64,000 nucleotides of DNA from Minisyncoccota bacterium (GCA_041389085.1 JAWKSL010000001.1:228542-292541), one strand, 5' to 3'. Positions 10,235 through 34,777 are shown, counted from the stretch's first letter. Notes: generated from the sequence alone by a model not told the origin. Translations and numbers: made by a program.

Positions 10235-10424
10235 ATTTGATCTTTCAACATATAAAACGCCCGTTTCGTTGTGGGCTTGGATTAGATACTTAGCACTCGG
10301 AAGAGCTGGTTTCGGCTGGCCCTCTCCTCGGTTCTATTCTGGATTCTCTTTTTATAAGAGTCTTTTTAATCGGTATCCCCCCAGGTGCTGGTTGTGCCCA
10401 CAACGAAACGGGTGTTTTTATTTA
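10235..10424 (+). ncRNA. candidate structured sRNA (~190 nt) closed by a 23-bp stem plus U-tract
   Basis: 10254-10276 aaaacgcccgtttcgttgtgggc pairs with 10396-10418 gcccacaacgaaacgggtgtttt (one G.U), followed by tttatt. There is no ORF. The family is undetermined; 6S-like or SRP-like are possibilities. Confidence 0.3.
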
Positions 10425-12086
10425 CTCTAAAGGGCCGGTAACCTTCTCCAATTCGTCGAGAGTGCTCACTCCTGCAACTACTTTTAGCAGTCCATCTTGC
10501 TGAAGAGTGACGAGGCCATTTTCCTTCGCAAACTTTTGTATCTCTGCCTCGCCGGCATTTTTTTGTATAAGAAATTCTATCTCTTCTCCCATTTTTAATA
10601 TCTCGAATATACCTACTCTACCTCTGTAGCCTGTCTGTCCGCATGTAGCGCACCCCCCTTCCTTCGCTTTCATTACTCTTAGCGCCTCTGGTTTTTTAAC
10701 GCGCTCAGGCAGGGCTGCGATAATGGCTTTTACCTTCTCAATTCTTGGGTCGTTAGTAGCCTCTTCTTTGCAGTTTTCACAAATTTTTCTTATAAGGCGC
10801 TGAGCTATTACTATATTGAGCGCTGGGCCAATAGAGCTTACGGGCGCTCCAAGATTTATGAGGCGTGGAATAACCCCGCTTGCTGAGTTTGTGTGCAGTG
10901 TTGAAAAAACTAAATGGCCGGTAAGCGCCGCCTGCATAGCAGTGTTCGCTGTTTCGGTGTCGCGAATTTCTCCGACAAGAATCACGTCGGGGTCTTGGCG
11001 CATTATTGCCTCTAGCCCACTCGCAAAGGTGTAATTTTTTCTTTTATCTACCTGTGTTTGCTCTATGCGATCAAGGTGGTACTCGATTGGGTCTTCGATG
11101 GTAATGATTTTTATCTCTGAGCTCGCAATGGTTTTTAGAAATGCGTAAAGCGTAGTGGTTTTACCGCTTCCGGTAGGCCCAGTATTTAGAATCATGCCGT
11201 TTGGCCTTTTAATTTCCTGACTTAAAACCTCAAGGTCATCCTCTCTTAGCCCTAGGTCTTTTAATGTTAGTTGAATAACTCGTGGGTCGAGTATTCGCAG
11301 CACGAATGTTTCTCCAAACTCTGACGGAATAGCGCTTACACGAAGGTCGATAGCTGAGTCTCCTACTGAAAAACTAAACCTTCCGTCTTGTGATTTGTTT
11401 TGAACGTTTAGCCTAAGCCCTGATAGAAGCTTTATTCTGCTTACTACGAGCTTGTATGCGCCTTCCGTAAGCTCTGCGTTAATGTCTTGTAGCGCTCCGT
11501 CTACTCGGTAGCGCACTCTCGCTCCTCCCTTCTCTGCCTCAAAGTGAATGTCTGAGGCGCGAAGAGCTAGCGCTCCTGCCAATACAATCTCGAGCACTCT
11601 TCCGATTGATTTTGAATGAATAGCTGACTGTATGCTTTCTGCGATGTCTTCTCTGTTTTTGAATTTACTTGCAAACTCCTCAATTTGAGTATCGATCGCG
11701 TCCATGCGACCAGTCGATATGGTCTTCACCTTAGGCACAAACTTATAAAAGCTCCATGCGTAGACGAGGCTATCTTCTGATGCAAGGAAAATCTTTGCTC
11801 TGTAGCCCTGGCGCAGCAACTTTTGAACTGCAACTTTTGTTTCTTGCGTTGCAGGGTCTGCTGCGGCTACATACACCTCCTTATTTTTGCTTGCGAATGC
11901 AGCAACTTGGGCACTCTTTGCCTCTTGTTCTGGGATAAGAGCAAGGGCCTCGGTTGAGACTGGTAGTGAGTGAAGGTCTACATACCCACTATTCCCTCTT
12001 ACTGCCTGGGCTTTTGTAAGGCGCTCTTGGGAATTTTCCCAAGCCTTTTTAATTCGCTCGTTTATTTCGTTATTGTTTGAGAGCAT
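10422..12086 (-). CDS. pilB: type IV pilus/type II secretion assembly ATPase (PilB/GspE family)
   Basis: GPTGSGKTT Walker A and a C-terminal CxxC zinc tetracysteine. The ORF opens at 12335, but MLSNNNE at 12086 is the likely start because the extension overlaps yebC. Confidence 0.8.
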   Translation of the reverse strand: MLSNNNEINERIKKAWENSQERLTKAQAVRGNSGYVDLHSLPVSTEALALIPEQEAKSAQVAAFASKNKEVYVAAADPATQETKVAVQKLLRQGYRAKIFLASEDSLVYAWSFYKFVPKVKTISTGRMDAIDTQIEEFASKFKNREDIAESIQSAIHSKSIGRVLEIVLAGALALRASDIHFEAEKGGARVRYRVDGALQDINAELTEGAYKLVVSRIKLLSGLRLNVQNKSQDGRFSFSVGDSAIDLRVSAIPSEFGETFVLRILDPRVIQLTLKDLGLREDDLEVLSQEIKRPNGMILNTGPTGSGKTTTLYAFLKTIASSEIKIITIEDPIEYHLDRIEQTQVDKRKNYTFASGLEAIMRQDPDVILVGEIRDTETANTAMQAALTGHLVFSTLHTNSASGVIPRLINLGAPVSSIGPALNIVIAQRLIRKICENCKEEATNDPRIEKVKAIIAALPERVKKPEALRVMKAKEGGCATCGQTGYRGRVGIFEILKMGEEIEFLIQKNAGEAEIQKFAKENGLVTLQQDGLLKVVAGVSTLDELEKVTGPLE

Positions 12087-12141
12087 TGCAATAATTATAG
12101 CGGAATTGAAGCGGATGCGCTGGTTTGCTATGTTGGTACAT

Positions 12142-12669
12142 ATGGCTGGACACAATAAGTGGTCAAAAATCAAACATAAAAAAGCCGCTGCAGACTCAAA
12201 GCGTAGTGGTTTATTTTCTAAACATATTGCTGCAATATCGGTAGCAGCGCGTGAAGGCGCAAACCCAGAGACAAATGCAAAGCTCCGCGCTGTTATCGAC
12301 CGCGCAAAGGCGGCAAATGTTCCGAAGAGCAACATTGAGAGCGCTTTGTCTAAGGCTGGGGCCGAGAAAGATCTTGCCGAGCTTGTACTTGAAGCTTACG
12401 GACCTGCTGGGGTTGGAATTTTAATAAGCGTTATAACTGACAATACTAATCGCAGTATTTCTGAACTTAAAAAACTTATTGCGGATGCGGGTGGGAAGTT
12501 TGCCGACGTAGGAAGTGTGAAGTGGGCTTTTGAACAATCTCAAGACTATCAGTGGGTCGCAAAGTTCCCGCAGACAGTTGATGCTGCAGCTAAATCAGAC
12601 CTTGAAAGAATTGTTTCTGAGATAGAACAACACCCTGATGTTCAGGGTGTTGTAACAAGCGCTGCTTAG
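12142..12669 (+). CDS. yebC: YebC/PmpR family transcriptional regulator (short form)
   Basis: MAGHNKWSKIKHKKA start. At 175 aa it is shorter than the typical ~240 aa. Confidence 0.7.
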   Translation: MAGHNKWSKIKHKKAAADSKRSGLFSKHIAAISVAAREGANPETNAKLRAVIDRAKAANVPKSNIESALSKAGAEKDLAELVLEAYGPAGVGILISVITDNTNRSISELKKLIADAGGKFADVGSVKWAFEQSQDYQWVAKFPQTVDAAAKSDLERIVSEIEQHPDVQGVVTSAA

Positions 12670-15678: not shown

Positions 15679-16788
15679 TTAGCTTTCAAGCGGCATTACG
15701 ATGTAAAACATTGAGTCGTCTCCTTGTGGTTTTATCATCGCTGGTTTTTGGGTTGAGTTTAGACTAAATACTATTTCTTCTTGTGAAATTGACTGAAGTC
15801 CTGCTAAAAGATAGCGCCAGTTAAAGGTTATTTCGTTTATATCTTTTCCTTCGCGCTTTACTGGGATTTTATAGTTATTTTCTCCAAGAGATTGAGTACT
15901 TGAATATATTTCTAGGAAATTTGTGTCTTCTTTTAGTGAAAGTTTCACCTCTGTTGTTTTCCCTGAAAAGCTACTTACTAGCCGCATAGCATTTATAAGC
16001 TCAGATCTGTCGATGTGGAGTGTTGTAGTGAAGTCTTTTGGAATTATTCCTTGATAGTCTGGGTACTCCCCACTAATTACGCGTGAGATAACACTACTAC
16101 TCTCTGACTCAAATAGAACTTGGTTTTCATCTTTCGCTATTGTTACCTCTTCGCTGTTTTCAAAAACTTTTATAACCTCATTTACTGTCATTAGAGGAAT
16201 AATCACTCTAAACCCTTCATCGAAAGTCGATTCAAAATCGGTATTGAGAAGGGTTTTTTCTGCGAGACGGAAGCTGTCGGTTGCTGCGAGCTTTAAAATT
16301 CCTATTTGATAGTCAAAAAGTATACCTGAGAGCTCTGGTTTAAGCTCTGAAATTTGCGCTGCGTTTATAACTTGTGAAATTGCTGACTTAAGAGTTTCTG
16401 TTTTTATCTTTATGTTTTTCTCGCGCTCCTCTATTTTAGGAATTATTGGAAACTCATCTGCTTTTAAGCCCTGAATCTTCGCTTCATAGTTATCGGTTTT
16501 CACATTTAAAACCTCTCCGTCTAGCTGGAGTGTTACTCTTTCTGACTGAGTGTTGTTTACGATGCTAAATAGTGGATGAAATGGAATTGTTATCTCCCCT
16601 GTTTCAACAACTTTGCATGCAGCTTTTGTTTTTATCGCGAGTTCAAGATTTGTACTCGTGATAGTAAGACTTTTATCTGCACTTAATAAAACATTTTTCA
16701 GTATTGGAAGGTTTGAATTTTGAGTTACTGCTCGTTCTGTTTTTATAAGAGCTGTTTTTAAATTGTCTTTAAGTATTATCAACTGCAT
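15679..16788 (-). CDS. dnaN: DNA polymerase III beta sliding clamp
   Basis: MQLIILKDNLKTALIKTERAVTQNSNLPIL... is a good match to DnaN N-terminus; 369 aa. Confidence 0.85.
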   Translation of the reverse strand: MQLIILKDNLKTALIKTERAVTQNSNLPILKNVLLSADKSLTITSTNLELAIKTKAACKVVETGEITIPFHPLFSIVNNTQSERVTLQLDGEVLNVKTDNYEAKIQGLKADEFPIIPKIEEREKNIKIKTETLKSAISQVINAAQISELKPELSGILFDYQIGILKLAATDSFRLAEKTLLNTDFESTFDEGFRVIIPLMTVNEVIKVFENSEEVTIAKDENQVLFESESSSVISRVISGEYPDYQGIIPKDFTTTLHIDRSELINAMRLVSSFSGKTTEVKLSLKEDTNFLEIYSSTQSLGENNYKIPVKREGKDINEITFNWRYLLAGLQSISQEEIVFSLNSTQKPAMIKPQGDDSMFYIVMPLES

Positions 16789-19752: not shown

Positions 19753-20167
19753 AGACTTTATAGAGGGAATAGTGACACGAATGGGCTTTGCAGACGCCCA
19801 GGTTAGCGTTGATGAAGAAGGCCGAAGAATATCAGTTATTATCGACGATGGTGACTGGGTGGCGAAAAAAGTTCCCGACCTTGTTTCTGCCCTTCGACAG
19901 CTTACACGAGGGCTTGCGCGAAAGAATTCACTCGAGAATTACTTTATCGACATAAACAACTACAAGAAGGAAAGAGAGCGTCTCATTGTTGAGATAGGCC
20001 AGGCGGGTGCAAAGAAGGCAGTATTTGAAAAAGTAGAAGTGGCCCTGCCAGCAATGAACTCTTACGAAAGAAGGCTTGTACACGCAGACCTGTCTATGAG
20101 GCCCGATGTAAAGACTGAGAGCGCCGGAGAGGGCAAAGAAAGACACATAATAATAAAACCGCTGTAA
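19736..20167 (+). CDS. jag: Jag/KhpB-like KH/R3H RNA-binding protein
   Basis: Position after yidC, with a C-terminal R3H-like region. Confidence 0.65.
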   Translation: MDLQLKDFIEGIVTRMGFADAQVSVDEEGRRISVIIDDGDWVAKKVPDLVSALRQLTRGLARKNSLENYFIDINNYKKERERLIVEIGQAGAKKAVFEKVEVALPAMNSYERRLVHADLSMRPDVKTESAGEGKERHIIIKPL

Positions 20168-20195
20168 GCGGTTTTATTATTGAGCTGCTCGATAT

Positions 20196-21371
20196 TTAGT
20201 CTACCCAGGTTGTTATTCCCCCACTCTCTTTTATCTGATTGTAGGCTGTCTCTGTTTGATCCGAGCCATTACTGTATTGAGAAAACATCTGGTCTCTTCC
20301 CGCGAGATACCCAGCGCGCGACTGCTCTACCCATGGATGTGCAGTGTTGTCTGCTAAGTAACTTCTCTGTTCTATTTCAATGAGTTGGCGGGCCACCTGT
20401 TGAGGGGTTTCATTATTGCCCTGTGTTACCACTTCATTTACCACTCCCTCTCTCCTCATTTGGTAAAATTGCTGCTCGGCATACTCATTGAATCCTGTTG
20501 GGTATTCGCTGTTCGCCTCCTGCCATGAGATGTATCCATCTGCTTGGTAGGAAATACGGTTTCCTTCGCTAAAGTTGTATGGGTTTTGATAGTTTCCTGT
20601 ATCGAGGGCGCTTATTCTCTCGGAAAAATAATGAGCTCGAAGAGCGGGATATTGGTTGAATAGAGCTTCTTGCGCTGCGGCAAACGCTGCATAATTTTCT
20701 GAAGAGAGAATTGTAGACTCATCTCTTAGCATTCGTCGTGCGGCTTGAAGCGCCCTACGGTCATCGTTGAGGTTGAACTCGTGTTTATAGCCATTTATAT
20801 ATGACTCTGTTTGGTTCGCTTGTCTGCTCGCCTGTGAGTTTTGTATAGCTTCTAGCTCGGCATCTCTTGCCTCAGCATTTCTTTGCTCTCGCATAGCCTC
20901 GAGCTCACGAATTGGTTCATCTGAGCTCCCAATGTTTAATATGCGCGGATTAATAGTGTAAAGAAGCACAGCAGCTCCAATAAGAAGCACAAGGCCAATA
21001 ATAGCGTCGAATATCCACCCCTTTGCGTCTGCCTGCACAGCTGGCTTCCCTGCTGAAGCTACGTAGCGCACTCCGGCAAAAACAATAATCGCGAGAGCTA
21101 AAAGAGCTCCGATGCCAATAGCCCAGCGATAGATAATGTTTATGTAGTTTCCTAGTCCTTGATGTGCATTTACCGAACCACCTGTTCCTGGAATGTCTAC
21201 AATTAGGTCTACGGTTCCGTCTGGGGTAGTTTTTGCGGCGGCGTCTACAGCGTCAGCATTTGCTTCTTGTGGTGTGGCCTCATCCTCAGCAGAAACACTC
21301 GCCGTGAGTGGGGCTAGTGCGATTAGTCCTGCAAAAAGCGCAGCGAAGAATGTCTTAGTTTTTAGGCTCAT
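20196..21371 (-). CDS. secreted VirB2/TrbC-pilin-like domain fused to a ~240-aa Q/N/Y-rich C-terminal domain
   Basis: A signal peptide is followed by two hydrophobic helices (YINIIYRWAIGIGALLALAIIVFAGV and WIFDAIIGLVLLIGAAVLLY), as in conjugative pilins. The family is not certain. Confidence 0.4.
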   Translation of the reverse strand: MSLKTKTFFAALFAGLIALAPLTASVSAEDEATPQEANADAVDAAAKTTPDGTVDLIVDIPGTGGSVNAHQGLGNYINIIYRWAIGIGALLALAIIVFAGVRYVASAGKPAVQADAKGWIFDAIIGLVLLIGAAVLLYTINPRILNIGSSDEPIRELEAMREQRNAEARDAELEAIQNSQASRQANQTESYINGYKHEFNLNDDRRALQAARRMLRDESTILSSENYAAFAAAQEALFNQYPALRAHYFSERISALDTGNYQNPYNFSEGNRISYQADGYISWQEANSEYPTGFNEYAEQQFYQMRREGVVNEVVTQGNNETPQQVARQLIEIEQRSYLADNTAHPWVEQSRAGYLAGRDQMFSQYSNGSDQTETAYNQIKESGGITTWVD

Positions 21372-23076
21372 TGCTTAATTGTTGGGCGATTAACTCTTCT
21401 GGGTTTGTGGTTATTATCTCATGCTCTGGATAGGACGCTACTATTTGAATAGCAACGTGGTTTAGTCCGGCAAAGAATAGCCCTTGTCCCACCTCTCCTT
21501 CAAGGAGAAGTGATTTTTCTCCATCTGAAAGATCAAATGTCTTGGTGATAGTGTCTATCATCGCTGGTGATTGGCGCAGAAGCAGCTGGAGGCTTGAGTT
21601 TGTGATTATCGGGCGCCCGTATGGCGAGAGAAGAAAGTCTTCTACGTCTTGAGTAATAGTAGTTACCCCAAGGTAGTACTTGCGTGCTCGTTTTACGAGG
21701 CCAAATAGGAATGTTGCACTGTCTTGGTTTTTCATTAAGAGCCACGCTTCGTCGATAACAACAACGCGGCGCTTTAGCTTTGAGCGAATAACTGCCCAGA
21801 TGAAGTTAAGAATTACATACATCGCTATTGGGCGAAGCTCTTCTTCAAGGTCGCGAAGAGAAAATACAATCATGCGGTTTGCGATGTCGATGTTGGTAGC
21901 CTGGTTTGCAAACCCTGCAAAGCTACCTTCGGTAAAGCGGTAGAGTCTGTCTGCAAGCCCCTCCCCTCCTTCAAACCCACGCAAGACGTTTTCCAGGTCT
22001 TTTAATACTGGTGGCTCTGAGTTGCTAAAGTCTTTTCCTGGGATGATGTCGCGCGCTGCATATGTTTCAGTAATAGCGCGGTCGATAAGAGCCTCTTCTT
22101 CTGGGCTAATTTCCCCTACCATGAGGCGGATAAGGCCGGCGAGGTTTACAATGTGGCTGCGAAGAGTTTCTGCTGGATCGTCTCCTTCAGGAATAACTGG
22201 GATTTGAAATGGGTTGATGTGGTCTTTTGATGAAAGTGAAATTCTAAAGTAGCTTCCTCCAACTGCGCGTGTAAGGCGCTCATATTCGTTTTCAGGGTCT
22301 ACAACAAGCACGTCGGTGCCTGTCATTAGAAGGCGGAGAATTTCGAGCTTTGCAGCGTATGATTTTCCAGATCCAGACTTTGCAAAGATAACCATGTTTG
22401 CGTTTTCAAGCTTGAAGCGGTCGAAGATGATCAAGCTGCTGTTGTGGCGGTTTATTCCATATAGGATTCCTTCTTCACTTGTAAGGTTGAGAGAAACAAA
22501 TGGGAAAGAAGAGCTGAGCGGCCCTGAGTTTAGCGGTGTAGTTACTTGCAGCTGATCTTTTGCGGTTGGGAGCGTAGTGTTAAAGCCTTCTACTTGCTGG
22601 AAGAGTGCTGGCTTTGCGTATACAAGGCGGCTTTCAAGAAGATTGGTTATTTCTGACTCTACTTTCTTAAGCTCTTTTAGAGAGTCTGCGTACATCGTTA
22701 TATACACTGCTGATTGAAAAAGGTGCTCGCGCGATTGCTGAAGTGAGTCTCGGAGAGATTCTACATCTTGGTGTGCTGTTTCAAGGAGTGGGCTTCGAAT
22801 GAGGCCTTTTTCTTGTTGCTCGATAAGTTGCGCTTCTATCTGAGTAGCTTTACGGCGAAGTTTTTTGAGTGCGAGCGAAGTCTCAACAGGAGCTACATAT
22901 ATACCTATATCGAGTAGGCCTGGAAAATTTACAATTGGGCTAAACCACCCTGTTGCTAAGTAGCGTGGGTATGAAAATACGAAGATTGTTTTTGCGAACT
23001 TGTTTCCTATTTGAAGGTGGTCGCTGCTGAGCTTTATCGCTGCTGGAGCGATGATGTTTTTTATCTGTTCGTTCAT
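21355..23076 (-). CDS. virB4: VirB4/TrbE/CagE-family T4SS ATPase (C-terminal ATPase part)
   Basis: FAKSGSGKSYAAK Walker A and VVVIDEAWLL Walker B; 573 aa. Confidence 0.75.
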   Translation of the reverse strand: MNEQIKNIIAPAAIKLSSDHLQIGNKFAKTIFVFSYPRYLATGWFSPIVNFPGLLDIGIYVAPVETSLALKKLRRKATQIEAQLIEQQEKGLIRSPLLETAHQDVESLRDSLQQSREHLFQSAVYITMYADSLKELKKVESEITNLLESRLVYAKPALFQQVEGFNTTLPTAKDQLQVTTPLNSGPLSSSFPFVSLNLTSEEGILYGINRHNSSLIIFDRFKLENANMVIFAKSGSGKSYAAKLEILRLLMTGTDVLVVDPENEYERLTRAVGGSYFRISLSSKDHINPFQIPVIPEGDDPAETLRSHIVNLAGLIRLMVGEISPEEEALIDRAITETYAARDIIPGKDFSNSEPPVLKDLENVLRGFEGGEGLADRLYRFTEGSFAGFANQATNIDIANRMIVFSLRDLEEELRPIAMYVILNFIWAVIRSKLKRRVVVIDEAWLLMKNQDSATFLFGLVKRARKYYLGVTTITQDVEDFLLSPYGRPIITNSSLQLLLRQSPAMIDTITKTFDLSDGEKSLLLEGEVGQGLFFAGLNHVAIQIVASYPEHEIITTNPEELIAQQLSNEPKN

Positions 23077-23077
23077 G

Positions 23078-23770
23078 CTAGGCGTTTGGTTGGTCTGTAG
23101 TTAAGACAAGACCTTTCTTTTCTATAGCCTCTGGGTTGTAGAGGTTGTAGAAAAGTTCAGTGGTTTCTTCGTCGTTGAGGGGTACTGCGCGAAGACCTAT
23201 CTGGTTTAGTGAAGACACTACTTCGTCAGTTCTTTGCTTGAGCTGACTCACGTATTCGCGAATGTTTTCGTCTCCTGATGTCTTTGTGAGAGGGTCGAGC
23301 TTATCCTTCGATATGAGTTTAAACAGTCCTCCAGCAGCCTTTTTGCCTGCTTGTGAGAGCTGCACTGGGTCGTATGGTACTACAACGAAGAACGATTTAT
23401 GCATGATAATGTTCTCGTTTACAAGGGTGCGGATAAACTCGCGATACTCTGCTATTTGTGTGCGAAGAAGCGGGTTTGGCTCCTTTACCTCTATTTGAGA
23501 AAGCCCTTCAATGTATCGGTCTACGTTTATCTTGCGTGAGTGTACGAAAATTTGAATTGGAAAGTCGAGTGAGTTGAGGAAGTTTTGATATCCAAATATA
23601 AGAGCCTCCTTCTCTTCTTCACTTTTTAGGTCGAAGTTTATACCAGAAACCATAACGATCTGGCGCAAAGCTCCGTTTTTAAGAATAGCTATACCATCCT
23701 TCACTTCTTTTACTTCAACAAACGATTGTGTTGGAAGTGACTGTTTTGGATTCACTTTTTCCTCTTGCAT
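23078..23770 (-). CDS. probable N-terminal domain of VirB4, encoded as a separate ORF
   Basis: Its stop (TAG) is 1 nt before the ATG of the ATPase ORF. 230 + 573 aa is about the length of a full VirB4. Confidence 0.4.
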   Translation of the reverse strand: MQEEKVNPKQSLPTQSFVEVKEVKDGIAILKNGALRQIVMVSGINFDLKSEEEKEALIFGYQNFLNSLDFPIQIFVHSRKINVDRYIEGLSQIEVKEPNPLLRTQIAEYREFIRTLVNENIIMHKSFFVVVPYDPVQLSQAGKKAAGGLFKLISKDKLDPLTKTSGDENIREYVSQLKQRTDEVVSSLNQIGLRAVPLNDEETTELFYNLYNPEAIEKKGLVLTTDQPNA

Positions 23771-23794
23771 ATATAAAAGTATAACAGGCTTAAG

Positions 23795-24310
23795 CTAGCG
23801 ATAATCGACGCGCTTGTATACGCGGCGTTCACCAGTAAGCTTTCTTTGTACTTCGAACTGCTCTACTGGCTCTTTAATTCGGTTAAATATCTTTAATCCC
23901 CCCTTCTCTCTTAACTTTATTGGCTGAGTTGTGGTGTTGAGCTTATCCCAAAGGTTTTCGAGCGGTTTTATCTGAGCTTCTTTCTCGCGAACCACCTTTA
24001 TATCAGGAAGGTTTGGAAGAAGTTCCTTTGTTTCTTCTTTTTTCCAAATATAAAACTTCGGTTGCCAGGTGAATTTGACTGCTGAAACGAGCAAGATAAT
24101 AAACGGGCGGCCATTTACCTTTATAAATGCAAAAGAGCTGGCAAGTGTGCCAACTACTACGGTGATTATAAGCCAGAGCCAGAGTTCAAAAAGGAAGAAA
24201 AAAAGAAAACTCGCGAGAGCTGCTATTGCGATGTAGATAAACTGCTTGAGCGTAAGAGGCCCAACTATCTTGTCTTCTATTTCGATAAATTGAGGTACTT
24301 GGAACTGCAC
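23795..24310 (-). CDS. PrgI/VirB3-like small membrane protein
   Basis: Two N-proximal TM helices (FIYIAIAALASFLFFFLF / LWLIITVVVGTLASSFAF) and a position next to VirB4. Confidence 0.45.
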   Translation of the reverse strand: MQFQVPQFIEIEDKIVGPLTLKQFIYIAIAALASFLFFFLFELWLWLIITVVVGTLASSFAFIKVNGRPFIILLVSAVKFTWQPKFYIWKKEETKELLPNLPDIKVVREKEAQIKPLENLWDKLNTTTQPIKLREKGGLKIFNRIKEPVEQFEVQRKLTGERRVYKRVDYR

Positions 24311-24334
24311 AAAATTAGAGTTAAGAGGTAAGAA

Positions 24335-24721
24335 TTAAGAATTAAGAGTTTTGGTCTTTTTTATCAACCCATTTAGTAGTTTACTACATTCAATCGCCAT
24401 GTCTGCTAGGTTTTTAAAACCATTTTCTTTTATATGTCCTAAGTCTCTAGCTATAAGTAGTTGGCTTTGTAGTTCAGTTAGAGACCCTAAGCTCATAGAG
24501 TAAAAATGCTGCCTGTCTTTCGGGGAGTGCCTACTAAAGCCCTCTGCTATATTTGAACATGTAGACACCGAGGCTCTTCTCATTTGGCTTGTAAGTGTAA
24601 ACATCTCTTCTTTCGGGAAAGCCGATGTGGCTTTGTATATTGCTAAGGTCAGCGAATGACATCTCCTCCACGCGATAAGGTCTGTGAACGATTTAATTTT
24701 CCCTGTGTTTTCTTTTTTCAC
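24335..24721 (-). CDS. four-helix-bundle protein (23S rRNA intervening-sequence protein / Avd-like family)
   Basis: 128 aa; the ...AEGFSRHS...FYSMSLGSLTELQSQL pattern is typical of this family. Confidence 0.7.
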   Translation of the reverse strand: MKKENTGKIKSFTDLIAWRRCHSLTLAIYKATSAFPKEEMFTLTSQMRRASVSTCSNIAEGFSRHSPKDRQHFYSMSLGSLTELQSQLLIARDLGHIKENGFKNLADMAIECSKLLNGLIKKTKTLNS

Positions 24722-24753
24722 TCTTACGTCTTATCTCTAAACTCTCGCTTCTA

Positions 24754-25590
24754 TTATTTCGGTAAGTTGTCTTTGTCTCCTAATATTGTTCTAAATGCGC
24801 TGTAGTGCACTACTTTTGGCTCTTCGTGCCTACTTTCAACCCTGCCTGGCTGCACCTGGGCTTCATTTTTATTTATGCCCTTAAAGAAGCTTCCGAAGCG
24901 GGCTTTTTCTTGCGGAGCTTGTTCTTGCTTCTGGGGTTGGCTTGCTGAGTGTGGGAGCTCAAAGCGAAACGCAGGGCCCGCGCTTTCTGCCGAAGGCTGC
25001 TTTGGTGCCTCTTCGTGAAGCATAAAAGGTTTCTCGGTTGTTTGCTGGTTTGTGTCGCTCTTTAAGTCTGGCTTTTGTGGTTGCTGCTTTGGCGCAAGGT
25101 CCGGCACAACACTTCCTTGTGCTGGTGTGGCTTGTCCTTCCAGCTGGGTTGTTGGTGCTGAGTCGGCTAAAGATCCTTTTCTTGCTTGCGCAAAGGCTGA
25201 AATAGAAGGCTTCTGTTGCGAAAGTGAATCTACTCCCCCTCTCGGTGTACTGATTTTTTCTATATCAACGCCCTGTACTGTTTTTAGGCCGATTGTAATC
25301 GGTGCCAGTACTTTATCTTTCAATATTGCTGCAATTTCTCCTGCTTTGTCTTCAGATATCTTTAAATCAGTAGCAAGCGCCTTTGTGAAGGCTTCTGGCG
25401 GGGTTAGCGTGAGTACGAGGCGCGTAATGTCGCGCGCGATTACAGGTAGGCGCTCTCCAAAAAACTGGTTTTCCTTGTTGATGTGTTCGATGACTTCTAC
25501 CACTCGGTCTGAAGTAAGCCAGTTCTTAATAGCCTCTGGAAGAAGGTAGAAAGTTTTTTGAGCTGTTTGTTGGCTAGAGAGAATATCCAT
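24754..25590 (-). CDS. hypothetical protein, Q/P-rich low-complexity C-terminal half
   Basis: ORF only; lies inside the T4SS-like cluster. Confidence 0.3.
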   Translation of the reverse strand: MDILSSQQTAQKTFYLLPEAIKNWLTSDRVVEVIEHINKENQFFGERLPVIARDITRLVLTLTPPEAFTKALATDLKISEDKAGEIAAILKDKVLAPITIGLKTVQGVDIEKISTPRGGVDSLSQQKPSISAFAQARKGSLADSAPTTQLEGQATPAQGSVVPDLAPKQQPQKPDLKSDTNQQTTEKPFMLHEEAPKQPSAESAGPAFRFELPHSASQPQKQEQAPQEKARFGSFFKGINKNEAQVQPGRVESRHEEPKVVHYSAFRTILGDKDNLPK

Positions 25591-25592
25591 CT

Positions 25593-28079
25593 TTAAGTGT
25601 AGCTTTGGTGTGTGTCTGCTCCTGCGTTATAATTTTGTTTTTTTGAGGATGGCTTTTGACCGGCCCCTGGGTCTCCTGGTGTTTGCATTAGTTTGTGCCA
25701 AGCCACTACCATGTCGCGGTCTTGTGTTAATTTCGCGATCTGCTCCTTCTGCTGCTTGCTGTCACCCCCCTGAGAGCGAATGGCGTTTATCTGGGTTTGT
25801 ATTTGAGCAGCGGCTGCTTCAGGACTTGCAGTTTGCCAGCTACCCTTTCCAAGACTTTCTTCTATAGCCTGTATCCAAGCCTCTTGTGTTGATGCTTTTG
25901 CATTCATTATCATCGCAGTTGCGCCTCTTACCTTCATGGCTTGTGCCAAGGCATATTTCTGCGCTGTATCGCCTAGGTCTTTAATAGGAAGATCGGCGAT
26001 CTTCTTTGCATCCAAGGATTCAAAGATACCTTTAATGATTTTATTTTCCGCCTCGGTGAGGTCGCTAGGCATGTCATTGCGTGCTTTTGCAAGGAATCCT
26101 TTAGCAATTTTGCGACTCTCTTTCTGGTCTTCAGTGCGAGCTTTTGTATTTTTATCCTTGAGCGCTTTCGCTATAGCCGCAAATTCAGGGTCCTTTTCGG
26201 AGAGCCCTCGAGCGATACTTTCTGCTAACTGTACACTTCCATTTGCGTAAGCGGCCTCAAGAAGTGCTTTTTTGTTCTTAAAGCTACTATCTCCGCTCGC
26301 TGCGCCCACATCGCTAAGAGCATTTGTTTTCGACAGGAGCATGCCAAGTGCAGCTTTTTCTTTGCTCGACATGGTGTCAATCTTGCTGAGCATGTCGAGA
26401 GCCTCTGGTTTTGATTTATCTTTATATTGATCGTTGAAGAACTTTAGGGTTGCCTCCTGGCTTGCCTTTTCTCCAAACGGAATAGATTTCTTTCCTACCG
26501 CGAAGTCTTCGGTCCACGCAAGCTTATCTTCTGCTATTTTTGGAATGTCTTTTAGGCGCGACTTTGAATCGAGGACTTCCCCTAGGGCTTTGCGCGGTGC
26601 AGCGGAAATTTTTCCTGCCCCCTTACCGAACCGTGCTATACCGCTTCCTACTGTTGCGAGTTTGTTAAATCCAAACTTAGAACCGGCTGCCCCAAGCCCC
26701 GATCCAATACCGGCAACAGCACCGGTGCTTGTTGCTTCAAATGCCTTTAAGGTTCCCCGCGTTGCTCCTCCTAGACCAACCTTACCAAGTGTTTTTGGTA
26801 TGCGTGAGCCGATAAATGCGCCGACTCCAAATGCGAGGCCTGCGCCCATAACTCCTCCAGCCTTTCCTGCCTTCATGGCTGCCCAAAGGAGCCCGAGAAG
26901 GACGAGGATTTGCATAACGTTGTTAAAGAAGTCGGTTCCGAGTAGTCCTCCGCTTCGTGAAGTGACGAGCATGGTACTAATCGCGAGGAAGACAAAGAAG
27001 GTTACCGTTGGTAGATAAATAAGCCACTTTATAAAGTTGTCCCACCACTTCTTTTGATATTCGCTTAGGCGAGGAATGAGTCCGAGTGCCCATACGAGTG
27101 GCATAAATATGAGAAGCGTTGCTATCCAAATGTTTCGCACAAGGACCATAATTCCAATTGCAACAAGGACCCCTGCCATAAGCCAGGTGATGATGTCGGC
27201 AAGAATCAGAGCTTGTACAAGTTTAAACCACACCGACCAACCTGTTTCGTCATTGTTTATATTGAATTTTAAGTCTTTACCGAGTTTAAATGCCTCTTCG
27301 TCTTCTACAAGTCCGCTTGATACCTTTGTGCCTTCATCGTTTAGCTTCACCGACTTATACTCAAAGTCCCCTGCATTTTTAATGCTTAGCAAACTTTGAG
27401 GTTGAAGCGCACCTCCGATTTTATCCGGGTGGATAGATTGGAGGAAGTTTGCTGTAAGTACATTTGATACATCGATAAATAGCCCAGCAATGAGGAAGCT
27501 GAAGTTTACGAGAATAGCTGCGAAGATGAGGCGTTTAAGTTGATTTTTGATATTGTAGCTCTTGCTTCGAAGCATGGTGCCAAAAGCCATAACGATTATG
27601 GCGATGACGAAGAAGAGGTTTGTAAGACTAAGGCTTACTTTAAAGCCGGCGGTGATTATCGGTAGCGTGATGATCGTGATTCCATACTTCACCATTGTGT
27701 ACACCATCCATGATCCAAAAGTGAGGATAAGTGCCCCTATTTTACCCACGAGGCTTAAGAAGAGCATGGTCACCGACTTAAAGCCAACCAAGATCCAGCA
27801 GTAGACGTCTGTTACTGATTTATCGCACTGGCCATACTTAATGTCGATACCTTCAAGATCAAAAAATCCATTCCCTTCTCCTATGCCAGGTACTGATGTC
27901 CCCGCAAAGTCTGCTGCTGAGGGTGGGTTGATGTTTGCACTTGCAGATGCTCCCTCCTCAGTTTCGTCATCTGCGAGCGCAACATTCACCCATGGTGTTG
28001 AAATAGGCAGGAGCGACAGTAGCACAAGCGCGATCATCGCTGCGGCAAATATTTTTTTTGTGATTTTTTTAGCTAGCAT
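25593..28079 (-). CDS. polytopic membrane protein, VirB6/TrbL-like, with long hydrophilic C-terminal extension
   Basis: Signal sequence, six or more TM helices, and cluster context. Confidence 0.5.
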   Translation of the reverse strand: MLAKKITKKIFAAAMIALVLLSLLPISTPWVNVALADDETEEGASASANINPPSAADFAGTSVPGIGEGNGFFDLEGIDIKYGQCDKSVTDVYCWILVGFKSVTMLFLSLVGKIGALILTFGSWMVYTMVKYGITIITLPIITAGFKVSLSLTNLFFVIAIIVMAFGTMLRSKSYNIKNQLKRLIFAAILVNFSFLIAGLFIDVSNVLTANFLQSIHPDKIGGALQPQSLLSIKNAGDFEYKSVKLNDEGTKVSSGLVEDEEAFKLGKDLKFNINNDETGWSVWFKLVQALILADIITWLMAGVLVAIGIMVLVRNIWIATLLIFMPLVWALGLIPRLSEYQKKWWDNFIKWLIYLPTVTFFVFLAISTMLVTSRSGGLLGTDFFNNVMQILVLLGLLWAAMKAGKAGGVMGAGLAFGVGAFIGSRIPKTLGKVGLGGATRGTLKAFEATSTGAVAGIGSGLGAAGSKFGFNKLATVGSGIARFGKGAGKISAAPRKALGEVLDSKSRLKDIPKIAEDKLAWTEDFAVGKKSIPFGEKASQEATLKFFNDQYKDKSKPEALDMLSKIDTMSSKEKAALGMLLSKTNALSDVGAASGDSSFKNKKALLEAAYANGSVQLAESIARGLSEKDPEFAAIAKALKDKNTKARTEDQKESRKIAKGFLAKARNDMPSDLTEAENKIIKGIFESLDAKKIADLPIKDLGDTAQKYALAQAMKVRGATAMIMNAKASTQEAWIQAIEESLGKGSWQTASPEAAAAQIQTQINAIRSQGGDSKQQKEQIAKLTQDRDMVVAWHKLMQTPGDPGAGQKPSSKKQNYNAGADTHQSYT

Positions 28080-29536
28080 GAGAATATTTTGCTATCGATA
28101 TAGTCGTCTGCCTGGTTGTATGAAGCTTGAGCTTCCATCTTTTTGCTTTGTACGAGTGGTGGAGTTGCAAGTGAGCCTATTTCTACCTGAAGGCGAACAA
28201 TCTCTCTCCATGCACTTGCCCCTTCGTCGGTGCTTAGCTCTTCTATTTCTACTTTGTAGGCTTCAAGCGATTGAATGTCAGCGAGGATAGAAGCATCTTT
28301 TGCTGCAAGGATGGCGATGTTTGCCTGCACGGCTTCTCTTTCATCGTCTACATCGCAAATGCTTTGCTTACCATCAAGGTCGTCGTCGTAGTCTTCCCAA
28401 AGTGCTTTTTCTGCACGCACAATTTCAACCATCTCTTCGTAGAGGGCGATGCTTGCGTCTATGTTTGCTACCATGTCTTCTTTTGCATTCTCAAACGGCG
28501 CGCCAATACTTGTTTGGTAAGCTTGGCAGGCTGCGAGCGCGTCTGAGCTTAGACCTGAGCACGGATTTGCATTTGTATTTACAAAGTCTGCACCGCGGTT
28601 GTCGTTTCGGCTAAGGCCACGAAGCCCTTCTACTCCGGTGCGTACAAGACGGTTGAAGAGCGCGTTCGCTATAGCTCCCGCGTATTCTGAAAGTTGGTCT
28701 GCATTTACGATAAAGTCGAAGTCTATTCCTACTGCATCCTTCACGAGATCGCCCACCACTGATCCTGGGGTGGTAATTGTACACTTTACGTCTCCTGGTA
28801 TACCGTCTCCGTCTATGTCTGGGCCGGTGCCTCCTTCCTCTTGGCAACTTTTTGTTCCGATAAATCCATCTCCAGCTCGGGCGTCTTCAAGCGCGGTGAA
28901 CTGAGCGGCAGATATTCTTCTGTGCTTCTCTTCCTCTAATAGAATGTAGCTACCAAAGATATTGTTTTGCGGCTCCCATGCAGCTTGGTAAGCAACCCAA
29001 CTTCCGTTTTCAAAGTCGGCGTAGAAGTTTTCGATATTTCCAACTATGTCGTCGAGCGTACATCTTGCTTGGTTTTGGAAGCGAGACTCTGGTGCGAGTG
29101 CAATTCGTAGCTGCGCGCTAAATGGGCTGCAGAGAAAGCCGAGCCCTATTTCTTGCGCCAAATCTCCCACTGCTTGGCTAGCGATGTCGTCAAGAAATGC
29201 GCTCCAGTCGGTTACGAAGCGTGGTTCGTCTCCTCCGTTTATCCATTGAATAATGTCGTCTACCATCATGTCTAAAAGACGCTTTTTGAGCGTCTCGAGG
29301 ATAAATGACTGAGCCCATTCAAAGCTTTGTTGAGTCGTTTCTGCCGTTGTCGCTGCTGCGATTGTTGCGATACTTCCGTCTATTGATGGAAGGCTACTGA
29401 TAAAGTCGAGGTGTCCGCCTACTACGTGTACGGTGAGCGCTTGGGCCTTTTGTGGCTTGAGAGTGAGAGAAAGTGGCGCAAGCGTAGCTACTACGAGAAG
29501 AGTGGCAGTAAGTTTTTTAAGTGTTTCAAAATTCAT
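28073..29536 (-). CDS. secreted hypothetical protein (T4SS-cluster associated)
   Basis: Signal peptide MNFETLKKLTATLLVVATLAPLS; no recognisable domain. Confidence 0.35.
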   Translation of the reverse strand: MNFETLKKLTATLLVVATLAPLSLTLKPQKAQALTVHVVGGHLDFISSLPSIDGSIATIAAATTAETTQQSFEWAQSFILETLKKRLLDMMVDDIIQWINGGDEPRFVTDWSAFLDDIASQAVGDLAQEIGLGFLCSPFSAQLRIALAPESRFQNQARCTLDDIVGNIENFYADFENGSWVAYQAAWEPQNNIFGSYILLEEEKHRRISAAQFTALEDARAGDGFIGTKSCQEEGGTGPDIDGDGIPGDVKCTITTPGSVVGDLVKDAVGIDFDFIVNADQLSEYAGAIANALFNRLVRTGVEGLRGLSRNDNRGADFVNTNANPCSGLSSDALAACQAYQTSIGAPFENAKEDMVANIDASIALYEEMVEIVRAEKALWEDYDDDLDGKQSICDVDDEREAVQANIAILAAKDASILADIQSLEAYKVEIEELSTDEGASAWREIVRLQVEIGSLATPPLVQSKKMEAQASYNQADDYIDSKIFSC

Positions 29537-30309
29537 TAGAATGTGATGCCGTTGTCCTCGATGTATTTATTCATTTGGTTTGAAAGTGTGATGAACTCAT
29601 CGTCTACCGAGTCTGCAAAATCGAGTGCGAGGAGTGCCTGAAGCGGATCGGTCTGATAGTTTGCGAGGAGCGCATATATGTTTCGCTGCGTAAGAAAGAG
29701 CTCTATAAGGTTTGCGTGAAACCCTGAGATAACGCGCGGAACAGGGAGTGCGTATAAATCGGCGATAATTTTTTCGTAGGTGCTTACAAACACTGGGAAG
29801 TTTGTCGCTTCGGGTTTTTCATAGTTTATAGACAGCCCTTTAAGGTTTTTCTTTATTAGGCTGTTCATTTCTTCAAAGTAGTCGGCTTGCGCCTCCTTGT
29901 CTGAAGTAGAGGTAAAAACTATTTGACCCTCATCTACCTTCCCGCGTAGCGCACTTGCATCAAATTCTTCAATAGCTTTTTGAAGAGTGGTTGCTACAAG
30001 CTGGTCTGGGTCTATCGCTGCGATCTGTGCGCCGCTCTCAGTCTGGAGTGGTCCGTCTGGGTTTTTGTCGACAAGATCTTTCGCAAGTGCCTTGCTTATC
30101 TCTTGTGTTAAGTTCCCATCAGTCGGACTCTTTACTGAGTTGAGGCTTTCAACGGTAGAAAAGCTTGGGACTTTTACTATTTCAGTCTCAATTATTTCTT
30201 TGTCGCCAAAGGCCCATACTGTTGCGGCAAACACAAGACACAAAGCAATCAAGGCGGTAAGAGTTGCCTTTAAAATTCGCTTTGCTGATACCTGGTTAGT
30301 CTGCAACAT
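29536..30309 (-). CDS. membrane-anchored hypothetical protein (T4SS-cluster associated)
   Basis: N-terminal TM helix; its start overlaps the stop of the next ORF. Confidence 0.3.
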   Translation of the reverse strand: MLQTNQVSAKRILKATLTALIALCLVFAATVWAFGDKEIIETEIVKVPSFSTVESLNSVKSPTDGNLTQEISKALAKDLVDKNPDGPLQTESGAQIAAIDPDQLVATTLQKAIEEFDASALRGKVDEGQIVFTSTSDKEAQADYFEEMNSLIKKNLKGLSINYEKPEATNFPVFVSTYEKIIADLYALPVPRVISGFHANLIELFLTQRNIYALLANYQTDPLQALLALDFADSVDDEFITLSNQMNKYIEDNGITF

Positions 30310-31163: not shown

Positions 31164-31243
31164 AAGAGTTTAGAGATAAGAGTTACGACGTAAGAATAGC
31201 TCATAACGAAGCCTAAAGGCAAAACTTTGCGTTGCTCTAGAGT

Positions 31244-31265: not shown

Positions 31266-31300
31266 GCAGTAGTGCGCGAAGAGTTATTTCTTGACAATAA

Positions 31301-31329
31301 GGCTAATTTATTTTATTCTCTTGGCAGAG
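31301..31329 (+). promoter_or_regulatory. sigma70-like promoter of cassette B
   Basis: TTGACA, 17-nt spacer, tattct. Confidence 0.45.
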
Positions 31330-31356
31330 CGATGGTGCTCTTGAGGAGGTGTTGGG

Positions 31357-31605
31357 ATGTTCCGATCCACCACCTATTTGCTTCTCCTCGGCTTCTCTCT
31401 TGTTGGAGGGGCTGCGGTCATGACAGCTCTTCTGATGGTCAGCCTTGCGCTGACCGCGCACCTGCCGCCATGGCTTGAACTCGCGGCTCGCCTCGCGCTG
31501 GTTTTCTCAGTGCTGCGCTGGGCAGGCCCGGCCCTCGGGAGGCTTCTCATTCCGATGTTCCGAGCTTACATTTCAGCTCGGAACGCCAACCCTAGCGACT
31601 TGTAG
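31357..31605 (+). CDS. small (82 aa) membrane protein, GC-rich (cassette B), weak paralog of 2084-2317
   Basis: SD gaggagg; hydrophobic; shares an AHxPPWL motif with the cassette A protein. Confidence 0.5.
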   Translation: MFRSTTYLLLLGFSLVGGAAVMTALLMVSLALTAHLPPWLELAARLALVFSVLRWAGPALGRLLIPMFRAYISARNANPSDL

Positions 31606-31626
31606 TCGCTGGGGTTCAACTTTTCT
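31590..31626 (+). terminator. conserved terminator hairpin (~90% identical to 2331-2368)
   Basis: ccctagcgacttgtagtcgctgggg followed by ttcaactttt. Confidence 0.7.
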
Positions 31627-31680
31627 ATAATCTGATGGCAAAAAACACCCGAATTAATTCATAATTAATTCGGGTGTTTT

Positions 31681-33664: not shown

Positions 33665-34777
33665 ATGCATCAAAATGGACGGTTTTCCCTTCAGAATGAC
33701 GCATCAGAATCAAATTTGAACTCACACACTACAGGCCAAGGGAATGGCGACGACGCTCCCTATAGATGGCCTTCAAAACTTAAAAATCTCGTAAAATCCC
33801 CTCTTTTCGGGGTCGGGGCTCTTTTTGTAATTTTGGGTATCGTGTTTACTCCAAGCGCGAGTTCTCAGGTAAGTTTTAGCGAGCCTACTTATTCTTTCGA
33901 TGATGGGGCTCTTAGCCTTGTAGTCGCAAGCGATGTGCCAGACGGCGTTGTTTTGGCAAACGATCCTCTTGAAGTAGCAGGGTTTGTTATCCTTGAGGAG
34001 TCTGTAGCTCTTGGTAGCGATAGCCCTGTGTTTATGGAGGGGGCAGATGGGCAAAAGCTTACGCGCGACGAAGTTATAACCTACACCGTTGCTGAAGGCG
34101 ACACCCTTTCTACCATCGCTGAGCAGTTCGGTATTTCCCTTTCTACCGTGCTTTGGGCAAACGAAGGCGTTGATGCAAAGCGTGTGCGTATAGGGCAGAA
34201 GATCGTTATCTTGCCTGTTTCTGGCGTGCGCCACACTGTGAAGAGCGGCGACACTCTTTCTAAAATCGCTTACAACTACAAAGTTTCAGCTGCAAAGATT
34301 ATGGAGTTTAATGACCTTGATGACGACGTAGTGCGCATTGGTCAAGAACTTCTCATTCCTGGCGGAAAGAAAACTTCAACCGCTTCTTCTGGCTCTGTTT
34401 CAAACAACATGCCAAGCTACGCTGGCTACTATGCAAAGCCTGCAAGCGGATACAACTGGGGCTCTCTACACGGAAACAACGGAGTAGACATTGCAAACGC
34501 TTGTGGCGCTACCCCTATCTACTCAGCTGCAGCCGGAACTGTTAAGGACGCAAAGTTTGGATGGAACGGTGGATATGGAAACATGGTCAGCGTTTCACAC
34601 GACAACGGAACCTGGACTCTCTACGCACACCTTAGCGATATTTCAGTAAGCTCTGGACAGAGCGTTTCACAAGGAAGCCTTCTTGGATACATGGGTAACA
34701 CTGGAAAGGTTTCTGGTGCTACCGGATGCCACCTTCACTTCGAGGTGCGCGGTGCCGCAAACCCATTTGCACATTAG
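33665..34777 (+). CDS. LysM-LysM-M23 peptidoglycan endopeptidase
   Basis: Two LysM repeats (YTVAEGDTLSTIA and HTVKSGDTLSKIA) and an M23 HxH motif (GCHLHFEVRG). Confidence 0.8.
   Translation: MHQNGRFSLQNDASESNLNSHTTGQGNGDDAPYRWPSKLKNLVKSPLFGVGALFVILGIVFTPSASSQVSFSEPTYSFDDGALSLVVASDVPDGVVLANDPLEVAGFVILEESVALGSDSPVFMEGADGQKLTRDEVITYTVAEGDTLSTIAEQFGISLSTVLWANEGVDAKRVRIGQKIVILPVSGVRHTVKSGDTLSKIAYNYKVSAAKIMEFNDLDDDVVRIGQELLIPGGKKTSTASSGSVSNNMPSYAGYYAKPASGYNWGSLHGNNGVDIANACGATPIYSAAAGTVKDAKFGWNGGYGNMVSVSHDNGTWTLYAHLSDISVSSGQSVSQGSLLGYMGNTGKVSGATGCHLHFEVRGAANPFAH

Follow-up and report, generated by a model that had tools for sequence, protein, structure and literature searches.

A type IV secretion-like operon beside the replication origin of a Candidatus Paceibacterota bacterium, with a probable non-conjugative role

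The DNA analysed here is a 64-kb stretch from a Minisyncoccota bacterium (JAWKSL010000001.1:228542-292541), which we call the window. All positions refer to it, and all window results cover these 64 kb of a source contig of at least 312 kb. Nine minus-strand open reading frames (ORFs) are packed into positions 20196-30309, separated by overlaps or gaps of at most a few tens of bases (Table 1). A preliminary description had read this group as a gene cluster resembling a type IV secretion system (T4SS), and we recovered all nine ORFs in the same places and on the same strand, each intact and translationally coupled. The operon encodes a cytoplasmic-membrane module for pilus assembly, composed of VirB4/TrsD, VirB3/PrgI, a VirB2-type pilin and a protein taken as a VirB6-type platform. 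Two lineage-specific extracytoplasmic proteins, which we designate h257 and h487, complete the set. The module for substrate recruitment and DNA processing, consisting of the type IV coupling protein (T4CP) and the relaxase, is missing from the operon. VirB4, h487 and h257 are each identical to proteins of a metagenome-assembled genome (MAG) that is listed at NCBI as "Candidatus Paceibacterota bacterium".

Table 1. Features of the T4SS-like operon and of its surroundings in the window
Feature	Position	Strand	Length	Remarks
h257	29536-30309	-	257 aa	operon gene 1; bitopic membrane protein
h487	28073-29536	-	487 aa	Sec signal peptide, secreted
VirB6-like polytopic membrane protein ("extended VirB6")	25593-28079	-	828 aa	
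h278	24754-25590	-	278 aa	soluble; no transmembrane helix or signal peptide
Four-helix-bundle gene (23S-rRNA-IVP type)	24335-24721	-	128 aa	
PrgI/VirB3-like small membrane protein	23795-24310	-	171 aa	PF12666
TrsD-like protein	23078-23770	-	230 aa	equivalent of the VirB4 N-terminus as a separate gene
VirB4 ATPase motor domain	21355-23076	-	573 aa	signature T4SS protein
VirB2-type pilin with C-terminal tail	20196-21371	-	391 aa	PF18895
Terminator-like hairpin	20149-20181	-		15-bp stem; consensus scan; ends the operon, common to convergent jag
IVP passenger cassette	24317-24745	-		gene 24335-24721; imperfect inverted repeats 24317-24345 and 24717-24745
dnaA	17012-18427			Pfam DnaA
dnaN	15679-16788			Pfam DnaN
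LysM + M23 peptidoglycan peptidase	33665-34777	+		Pfam LysM (two copies) and Peptidase_M23

On sequence grounds the identity of VirB4 is unambiguous. The protein scored 381.4 bits against the NCBIfam family conju_CD1110 (cutoff 325) and matched the Pfam families P-loop_TraG, AAA_10 and DUF87. Its top-scoring families are conjugative, namely the CD1110 and Mbov_0397 ATPases of integrative and conjugative elements (ICEs), and it matched CedB weakly (E 3e-10, 39 bits, far under the cutoff of 700). The homologs of VirB4 number more than 8000. In the best 120 of these matches, every taxon-specific name was Paceibacteria, Harrisonbacteria, Wolfebacteria or Patescibacteria group, with identities of 68-100% overall and of 68-85% across many genera.

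For comparison with relatives we scanned species-representative genomes, which yielded 65 loci whose ORFs were compared with the window proteins by local BLAST, and added two further contigs (L066 and L067) that were reached through homologs of h487. The gene directly upstream of virB4 matched NCBIfam TrsD (E 4e-9) and the N-terminal regions of VirB4 from several families (E 1e-8 to 1e-9). Its product aligns with residues 3-216 of a fused VirB4 of 790 aa (P0113) at 49% identity (E 5e-70), and its orthologs in L066 and L067 are annotated as TraC-like (PF26593). The preliminary description had noted a VirB4 in two ORFs. Both parts are present, and because the two genes meet at a TAG-C-ATG junction, and a length near 570 aa, that is the split form, is the majority among close homologs of VirB4, we take them as the conserved arrangement of TrsD plus VirB4 rather than as a broken gene. 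The PrgI/VirB3-like protein proposed in the same description scored 39.6 bits against PF12666 (cutoff 27) and also matched TcpE (E 6e-6). Its two adjacent transmembrane (TM) helices, residues 15-33 and 35-53, are predicted to anchor VirB4 at the membrane.

Kyte-Doolittle hydropathy places about nine TM segments in residues 1-400 of the VirB6-like protein; the C-terminal tail that follows is hydrophilic and comprises about 420 aa. The window copy has no Pfam match and stays under every curated family cutoff, including that of the NCBIfam CD3337/EF1877 mobilome membrane protein (E 1.1e-7). Six of its 20 positional orthologs match Pfam TrbL/VirB6, and the ortholog in L067 carries TrbL_3. Across the 20 orthologs N154, N192, S194, R315, P327, P336, W345 and P357 are invariant. 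A profile search against PDB sequences returned coiled-coil and ATP synthase b noise from the tail only. The protein is therefore labelled VirB6-like by transitive homology through its orthologs and by its topology: the long-tailed VirB6-like protein of the preliminary description stands as to topology and orthology, and the hidden Markov model check suggested there for each ORF was passed by the VirB3 (PF12666) and VirB2 (PF18895) families and fell short of the cutoff for the VirB6 copy of the window.

The "pilin-like fusion" of that description is a genuine pilin match with a long extension. The single pilin gene of the window encodes a signal peptide, two TM helices and, at the C-terminus, about 250 aa of hydrophilic tail, and residues 72-139 scored 37.0 bits against Pfam T4SS_pilin (cutoff 26.6); the NCBIfam Mbov_0395 pilin-like family was matched at E 1e-4. 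One relative (L001) has an ortholog of the same architecture with 35% identity. No homolog of the tail was detectable in the 65 loci, and in the comparison with the ortholog from a relative whose VirB4 is 85% identical, similarity fades past about residue 250. The tail is thus fast-evolving, follows the second TM helix and is predicted to be extracellular. These properties fit a host-recognition surface and parallel the divergent pilin arrays of Saccharibacteria. We also considered that the window pilin might be a short pilin fused to the downstream gene of L067, and rejected this idea because the tail has no similarity to that gene.

The proteins h257 and h487 are the membrane and secreted hypotheticals that the preliminary description had anticipated. 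The single TM helix of h257 lies near the N-terminus (residues 9-34, approximately) and is followed by an extracytoplasmic, all-helical bundle domain. We rejected h257 as a relative of VirB8, PrgL or TcpC, as it does not have the NTF2-like alpha+beta fold; it belongs to a conserved family without known function. In h487 a conserved, Cys-containing core (residues 80-300, approximately), with C136, C159 and several G, N and P positions invariant, precedes a C-terminal bundle of long helices. Its 39 homologs come from Paceibacteria, Harrisonbacteria or unclassified MAGs, and all of them are annotated as hypothetical. We found no Pfam, NCBIfam or PDB sequence match for h487, and a profile search against PDB sequences gave coiled-coil noise. 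The AlphaFold2 model reached a mean confidence (pLDDT) of 66 overall, with residues 331-486 alone confident, and a Foldseek search of the PDB with this weak model returned nothing below E 0.1. The Pfam, NCBIfam, PDB sequence and Foldseek searches thus lend no support to h487 as a relative of VirB1, VirB5 or an adhesin.

Wherever h487 occurs in the loci compared, it adjoins the VirB6-like gene. In one protein of 637 aa from a Parcubacteria MAG (P0148), residues 42-248 resemble h257 and residues 322-581 match the core of h487 at 43% identity, so that both parts stand in one chain. This fusion suggests, in the manner of a Rosetta stone, that h257 and h487 may act together; it could equally be a gene-calling or frameshift artefact of its MAG. 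The third hypothetical protein, h278, matched no Pfam or NCBIfam family; its N-terminal domain (about 110 aa) is conserved and gives way to a low-complexity tail rich in Pro and Gln. L001 (47% identity) and L002 (27%) have orthologs in the corresponding place, and L066 and L067 have unannotated genes of 241 and 303 aa there.

To look for mobility functions we ran Pfam on all ORFs of the window that were large or ambiguous, and inspected the translations of the rest. The 64 kb yielded neither a relaxase nor a T4CP, VirB11 or integrase, the other scanned ORFs being housekeeping genes, and no MOB relaxase, T4CP or origin-of-transfer (oriT)-like feature occurs in the 20 kb before the cluster or in the 34 kb after it. 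An oriT-like inverted repeat around the cluster was considered and rejected, as we saw short chance-level repeats only; the notable inverted repeats are those of the IVP cassette (Table 1) and of terminators. Direct repeats of the att type do not flank the cluster beyond short chance-level repeats, no tRNA gene adjoins it, and its GC content of 0.457 equals that of the window. The features by which a conjugative element is recognised (a MOB relaxase with oriT, a T4CP, and an integration module with att sites or atypical composition) are therefore lacking in the window, and the earlier statement that relaxase, VirD4, VirB11 and any oriT-like structure are absent was upheld by Pfam scans, translations and repeat search alike. 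To our knowledge, T4SSs of monoderms (mating-pair-formation classes MPF-FATA and MPF-FA) lack VirB11 anyway, so that the absence of this ATPase is uninformative. The sole secretion-type ATPase of the window is a PilB-type protein of 637 aa (10422-12335) with T2SSE and MshEN domains; these mark it as a type IV pilus ATPase, and we rejected it as a substitute for VirB11. Among the cluster proteins, Pfam and NCBIfam searches detected no partner families of the Ced or ComB systems (CedA, ComB6-10), and no competence genes lie beside the cluster in the window.

The cluster sits in core chromosome. It is flanked by jag and rsmA, with dnaA 1.8 kb away, and Pfam verified DnaN, DnaA, YidC, RsmA and a UvrD/PcrA helicase among the flanking genes. 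The genes rnpA-yidC-jag are divergent from dnaA. DnaA-box-like sites are clustered in the spacer between dnaA and dnaN, and the cumulative GC skew reaches its minimum at about 10-18 kb. The origin therefore adjoins the cluster and the operon reads toward oriC, head-on to replication. This geometry, which the preliminary description had recognised together with the core setting between jag and rsmA, is conserved in relatives.

Gene order supports the same picture over a wide range of taxa. The order VirB6-PrgI-TrsD-VirB4 recurs in Paceibacteria, Moranbacteria, Kazan, Berkelbacteria and Saccharibacteria (five candidate phyla or classes). The larger block pcrA-rsmA-h257-h487-VirB6-h278-PrgI-TrsD-VirB4-pilin-jag-yidC-rnpA-dnaA-dnaN is found in L002 and L004, partially in L001, and again in L066 and L067, where it includes a divergent LysM-M23 peptidase beside pcrA; the synteny comparison proposed earlier thus turned out in favour of the cluster. 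VirB4 identity to the relatives that share the block (L002, L004, L066 and L067) is about 55-75%. The locus belongs to the core chromosome and is inherited vertically; it is not an island. The LysM-M23 gene keeps its placement beside pcrA, rsmA and the T4SS in L066 and L067, is found directly upstream of virB6 in Moranbacteria loci, and lies directly downstream of virB4 in several Saccharibacteria loci. We infer that the peptidase belongs to the system, and regard it as a candidate functional analogue of VirB1 in wall remodelling.

With a probability of roughly 0.85, we interpret the cluster as a T4SS of the Patescibacteria clade, derived from MPF-FATA, held in the core chromosome by oriC of a Candidatus Paceibacterota bacterium and serving a non-conjugative role. 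In the known structures of Gram-negative T4SSs, and in agreement with PMC12857230, VirB2, VirB3, VirB4 and VirB6 form the core for pilus biogenesis, and the T4CP recruits the substrates. The window operon most likely serves not conjugation but a surface pilus or conduit, powered by VirB4, through which the cell would touch its host and exchange material with it. In this model PrgI and the VirB6-like protein would provide the docking site for hexamers of VirB4, which would extract Sec-inserted pilin from the membrane, and the pilin would then polymerise to a surface filament or conduit with its variable C-terminal tail pointing outward. The neighbouring LysM-M23 peptidase may open the wall for this structure. 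Such a filament or conduit could mediate contact with the host cell and possibly the exchange of macromolecules that biosynthetically poor epibionts require. The preliminary description had favoured a machine for secretion, uptake or attachment over a conjugative element, and synteny across classes, native GC content, the lack of MOB, T4CP and integrase genes in the window, and published work (PMC12102498, PMC10633639, PMC12857230) agree with this view.

The clade in question was described by Quinonero-Coronel et al. (Microb Genom 2025, PMC12102498) as a monophyletic group of Patescibacteria VirB4 proteins that falls inside MPF-FATA and is associated with TrsD, PrgI/VirB3, VirB6 and VirB2-like pilins. 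Of 3,035 genomes, 2,407 (a figure also given as 2,417) carry it. In Paceibacteria and Microgenomatia the virB4 neighbourhood is rich in dnaA, dnaN, rnpA, ksgA and rpmH, and the same authors report VirB1-like proteins that contain LysM/M23 as well as essential peptidase and lysozyme genes beside virB4 in Southlakia epibionticum (PMC12102498). The window cluster resembles these systems in its combination of TrsD plus VirB4, PrgI/VirB3 and a VirB2-like pilin with a protein that is VirB6-like by topology and orthology, in its chromosomal site near dnaA, dnaN, rnpA, rpmH and ksgA, in the lack of an adjacent relaxase or T4CP and of an outer-membrane core complex, and in the LysM/M23 wall hydrolase nearby. 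Specifically, the window holds VirB4 with adjacent TrsD, PrgI/VirB3 and a pilin, no relaxase or T4CP, and a neighbourhood of dnaA, dnaN, rnpA and ksgA; our placement in the clade is based on the CD1110 score and on the taxa among the best 120 VirB4 matches.

Transposon sequencing (Tn-seq) showed that the genes SEML1_0006-0019 and the pilins are essential for epibiotic growth of S. epibionticum ML1, and the authors noted that coupling and relaxase proteins are lacking from this cluster (Wang et al., Cell 2023, PMC10633639). Tests of essentiality have been confined to Saccharibacteria. The two versions differ: the window has one long-tailed pilin gene in place of an array of 2-11 short pilins, the cluster lies on the rnpA/jag side of the origin and not on the dnaN side as in Saccharibacteria, and the operon contains the Paceibacteria-specific pair h257/h487 and an IVP cassette.

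Compared with the MPF-FATA systems of mobile elements (Prg of pCF10, Trs of pGO1, the CTn elements of C. difficile and the Mycoplasma ICEs Mbov_0395/0397), the window cluster shares a VirB4 of the CD1110/Mbov_0397 type, TrsD, PrgI and a membrane protein that resembles VirB6/CD3337 below the family cutoff, and likewise lacks VirB7/9/10 and VirB11; a pilin-like protein is shared with the Mycoplasma ICEs. Unlike these conjugative systems it contains no relaxase, T4CP, oriT, integrase or PrgB-type surface adhesin, no VirB8-like protein (PrgL/TcpC) was detected in it, the fold of h257 not being that of NTF2, and it is fixed in the core chromosome. An operation without adjacent coupling protein has known parallels in Bordetella Ptl, Brucella VirB, H. 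pylori ComB and archaeal Ced, and VirB4-centred machines can therefore be repurposed. ComB and Ced import DNA, with VirB4 as the sole ATPase and without a T4CP. These parallels are partial: VirB7-10 belong to the diderm systems Ptl, VirB and ComB, VirB11 occurs in addition in Ptl and Brucella VirB, and Ced works with CedA/A1/A2. The window cluster has none of these components, and its sequence similarity to the four systems extends no further than the VirB4/HerA-type ATPase fold.

The conjugative ancestry of VirB4, which scores best on the families CD1110 and Mbov_0397, raises the question as to whether the operon could be a mating-pair-formation module that moves the chromosome or a co-resident element with relaxase, coupling protein and oriT supplied in trans. 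Published searches detected VirD4-like T4CP homologs in 2,918 genomes of Patescibacteria, as a rule at a distance from virB4 (PMC12102498), and 64 kb of the contig of at least 312 kb are in view. We nevertheless consider conjugation very improbable, given that relaxases were found in just 103 of 3,035 genomes and there without distinct T4SS features, and that the T4CP homolog of S. epibionticum is non-essential while its T4SS is essential (PMC12102498). The regions of 20 kb and 34 kb on either side of the cluster hold none of the missing functions, and a fixed core-chromosome site across classes is atypical for a transfer module. The same absences of relaxase, T4CP and integrase, the division of VirB4 into two ORFs, and a foreign-looking IVP cassette of low GC content that interrupts the operon could also be read as signs of a decaying, non-functional ICE remnant that has lost its DNA-processing genes. 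This reading is scarcely credible, as the ORFs are intact and translationally coupled, VirB4 is very strongly conserved (68-85% across many genera), the split of TrsD and VirB4 is the majority state among close homologs, synteny is kept across classes and the homologous system is essential in Saccharibacteria.

A third proposal falls within the non-conjugative reading, and its share is included in the probability given above: the cluster might be an import machine, comparable to H. pylori ComB or archaeal Ced, that takes up host DNA, RNA or other macromolecules for a cell unable to synthesise nucleotides. VirB4 as the sole ATPase and the lack of a T4CP agree with ComB and Ced, and the match to CedB, weak as it is, points in the same direction. 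Import is also favoured by the authors of the 2025 survey, who found the cluster beside comF, recG and radA in the class ABY1 (PMC12102498). Moreover, comEC is dispensable in S. epibionticum while the T4SS is essential, so that another uptake route would be needed. A 2025 review that sums up this work speculates on a pilus conduit for uptake (PMC12857230). On the other hand, the CedB score lies far below its cutoff, components like CedA or ComB7-10 were not detected, competence genes are absent beside the cluster in the window, experimental support for import is absent in any Patescibacteria, and Wang et al. suggested protein export as an alternative (PMC10633639). We regard import specifically as unlikely, though more probable than conjugation or decay.

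Several points weigh against the reading as a non-conjugative T4SS of the Patescibacteria clade. Experiments on Paceibacteria are lacking, and no Patescibacteria T4SS has yet been observed to form a pilus. As a VirB6, the window protein itself stays under the family cutoffs, h257 and h487 have no assignable function, with h257 lacking the VirB8 fold, and a pilin with a 250-aa tail may not polymerise as canonical VirB2 does. T4CP homologs exist elsewhere in most Patescibacteria genomes (PMC12102498), so that substrate transfer through a distant T4CP is possible in view of the 64 kb examined.

The composition of the cluster, its missing relaxase and T4CP, the origin-proximal core site and the repurposed reading were all published between 2023 and 2025 and are already known. 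Minor additions from the present analysis are the conserved h257/h487 pair, in which h257 is not VirB8-like, and the IVS-like inverted-repeat cassettes in the operon described below. Although their genomes are extremely reduced, almost all Patescibacteria have kept the T4SS, one of few machines of which this is true. The single species tested so far needs it for epibiotic growth, and it may be a route for taking from hosts or acting on them. As a clean and complete Paceibacteria example with a single long-tailed pilin and an unannotated extracytoplasmic pair, the window locus could guide structural or genetic work as soon as Paceibacteria can be handled in culture with their hosts.

The four-helix-bundle gene, which the preliminary description does not mention, matched PF05635 (121.7 bits) and TIGR02436 (118.7 bits) and is framed by an inverted repeat of 29 nt with 79% complementarity. 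The repeat motif occurs four times, compared with an expectation of 0.42, and in the minimum-free-energy and centroid RNA folds alike the repeat stem closes around the cassette ORF. With 0.388, the GC content of the cassette is below that of the window (0.457). Two such cassettes with their own inverted repeats of 20-35 nt occupy other spacers of the same operon in L002 (8427-8859 and 9546-9995), so that three cassettes lie in three different spacers of the T4SS operon in two genomes; no IVP cassette was found in the operon in L001, L066 or L067. The cassette is probably a passenger and not a T4SS subunit, and its features suggest an IVS-like element that is small and mobile or processed by RNase III. 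The stems of about 30 nt could form RNase III sites in the polycistronic T4SS mRNA and thereby tune subunit stoichiometry. A solo copy of the repeat motif is located at 31165-31181, just upstream of rsmA.

We offer one more speculation with two arms, and as a whole think it rather doubtful: h257 and h487 may be Paceibacteria-specific extracytoplasmic T4SS subunits that stand in for VirB8, VirB5 or an adhesin, none of which was detected, and set host specificity together with the long-tailed pilin, and the IVS-like cassettes may be mobile elements at the RNA level. The subunit arm is prompted by the constant adjacency of the two genes upstream of VirB6, by their fusion in one relative and by the lack of known proteins with a similar fold.

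Origin-proximal T4SS operons are transcribed toward oriC in L001, L002, L004, L066 and L067 and in about 18 Saccharibacteria loci. The Paceibacteria operons lie on the rnpA/jag side of the origin, those of Saccharibacteria on the dnaN side. In the left replichore of the window, 13 of 16 genes are co-directional with replication, and the right replichore shows no strand bias. Since these loci represent at most about two independent configurations and the right replichore is unbiased, we attach no functional meaning to the head-on orientation, which is not discussed in the survey of the clade (PMC12102498).

Some further features lie outside the T4SS operon. Between 44840 and 49190, a stretch of about 4.4 kb is poor in ORFs, which is unusual for a reduced genome: none exceeds 180 aa, stops are frequent in each of the six frames, and 45.7-46.6 kb form a core of 55-62% GC. 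Rfam gave no match to this stretch, whether the gathering threshold or a limit of E <= 0.01 was applied, and it has no tRNA, tmRNA or notable repeats. Between rsmA and pcrA, an insert at 31300-31650 (plus strand) has 60% GC in a window of 45.7% GC and contains a promoter-like site (31291-31319), an ORF for a hydrophobic membrane protein of 82 aa that is preceded by a ribosome-binding site (31357-31605), and two terminator hairpins. In L002, L066 and L067 rsmA and pcrA are directly adjacent, and the insert is therefore specific to the window genome. We rejected both this insert (31.3-31.65 kb) and the 44.8-49.2 kb stretch as known RNAs, as neither matched an Rfam family or contained a tmRNA or tRNA gene. 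The genes at 49187-50634 (plus strand) encode, in this order, a coiled-coil membrane protein, a lytic transglycosylase (SLT_2) and a RodZ-like helix-turn-helix protein, a further cell-wall remodelling module that is unlinked to the T4SS. Finally, a GC-rich, terminator-like hairpin of 36 nt occurs at 31588-31624 and again at 2330-2365 with 94% identity, which suggests a small family of hairpin elements.

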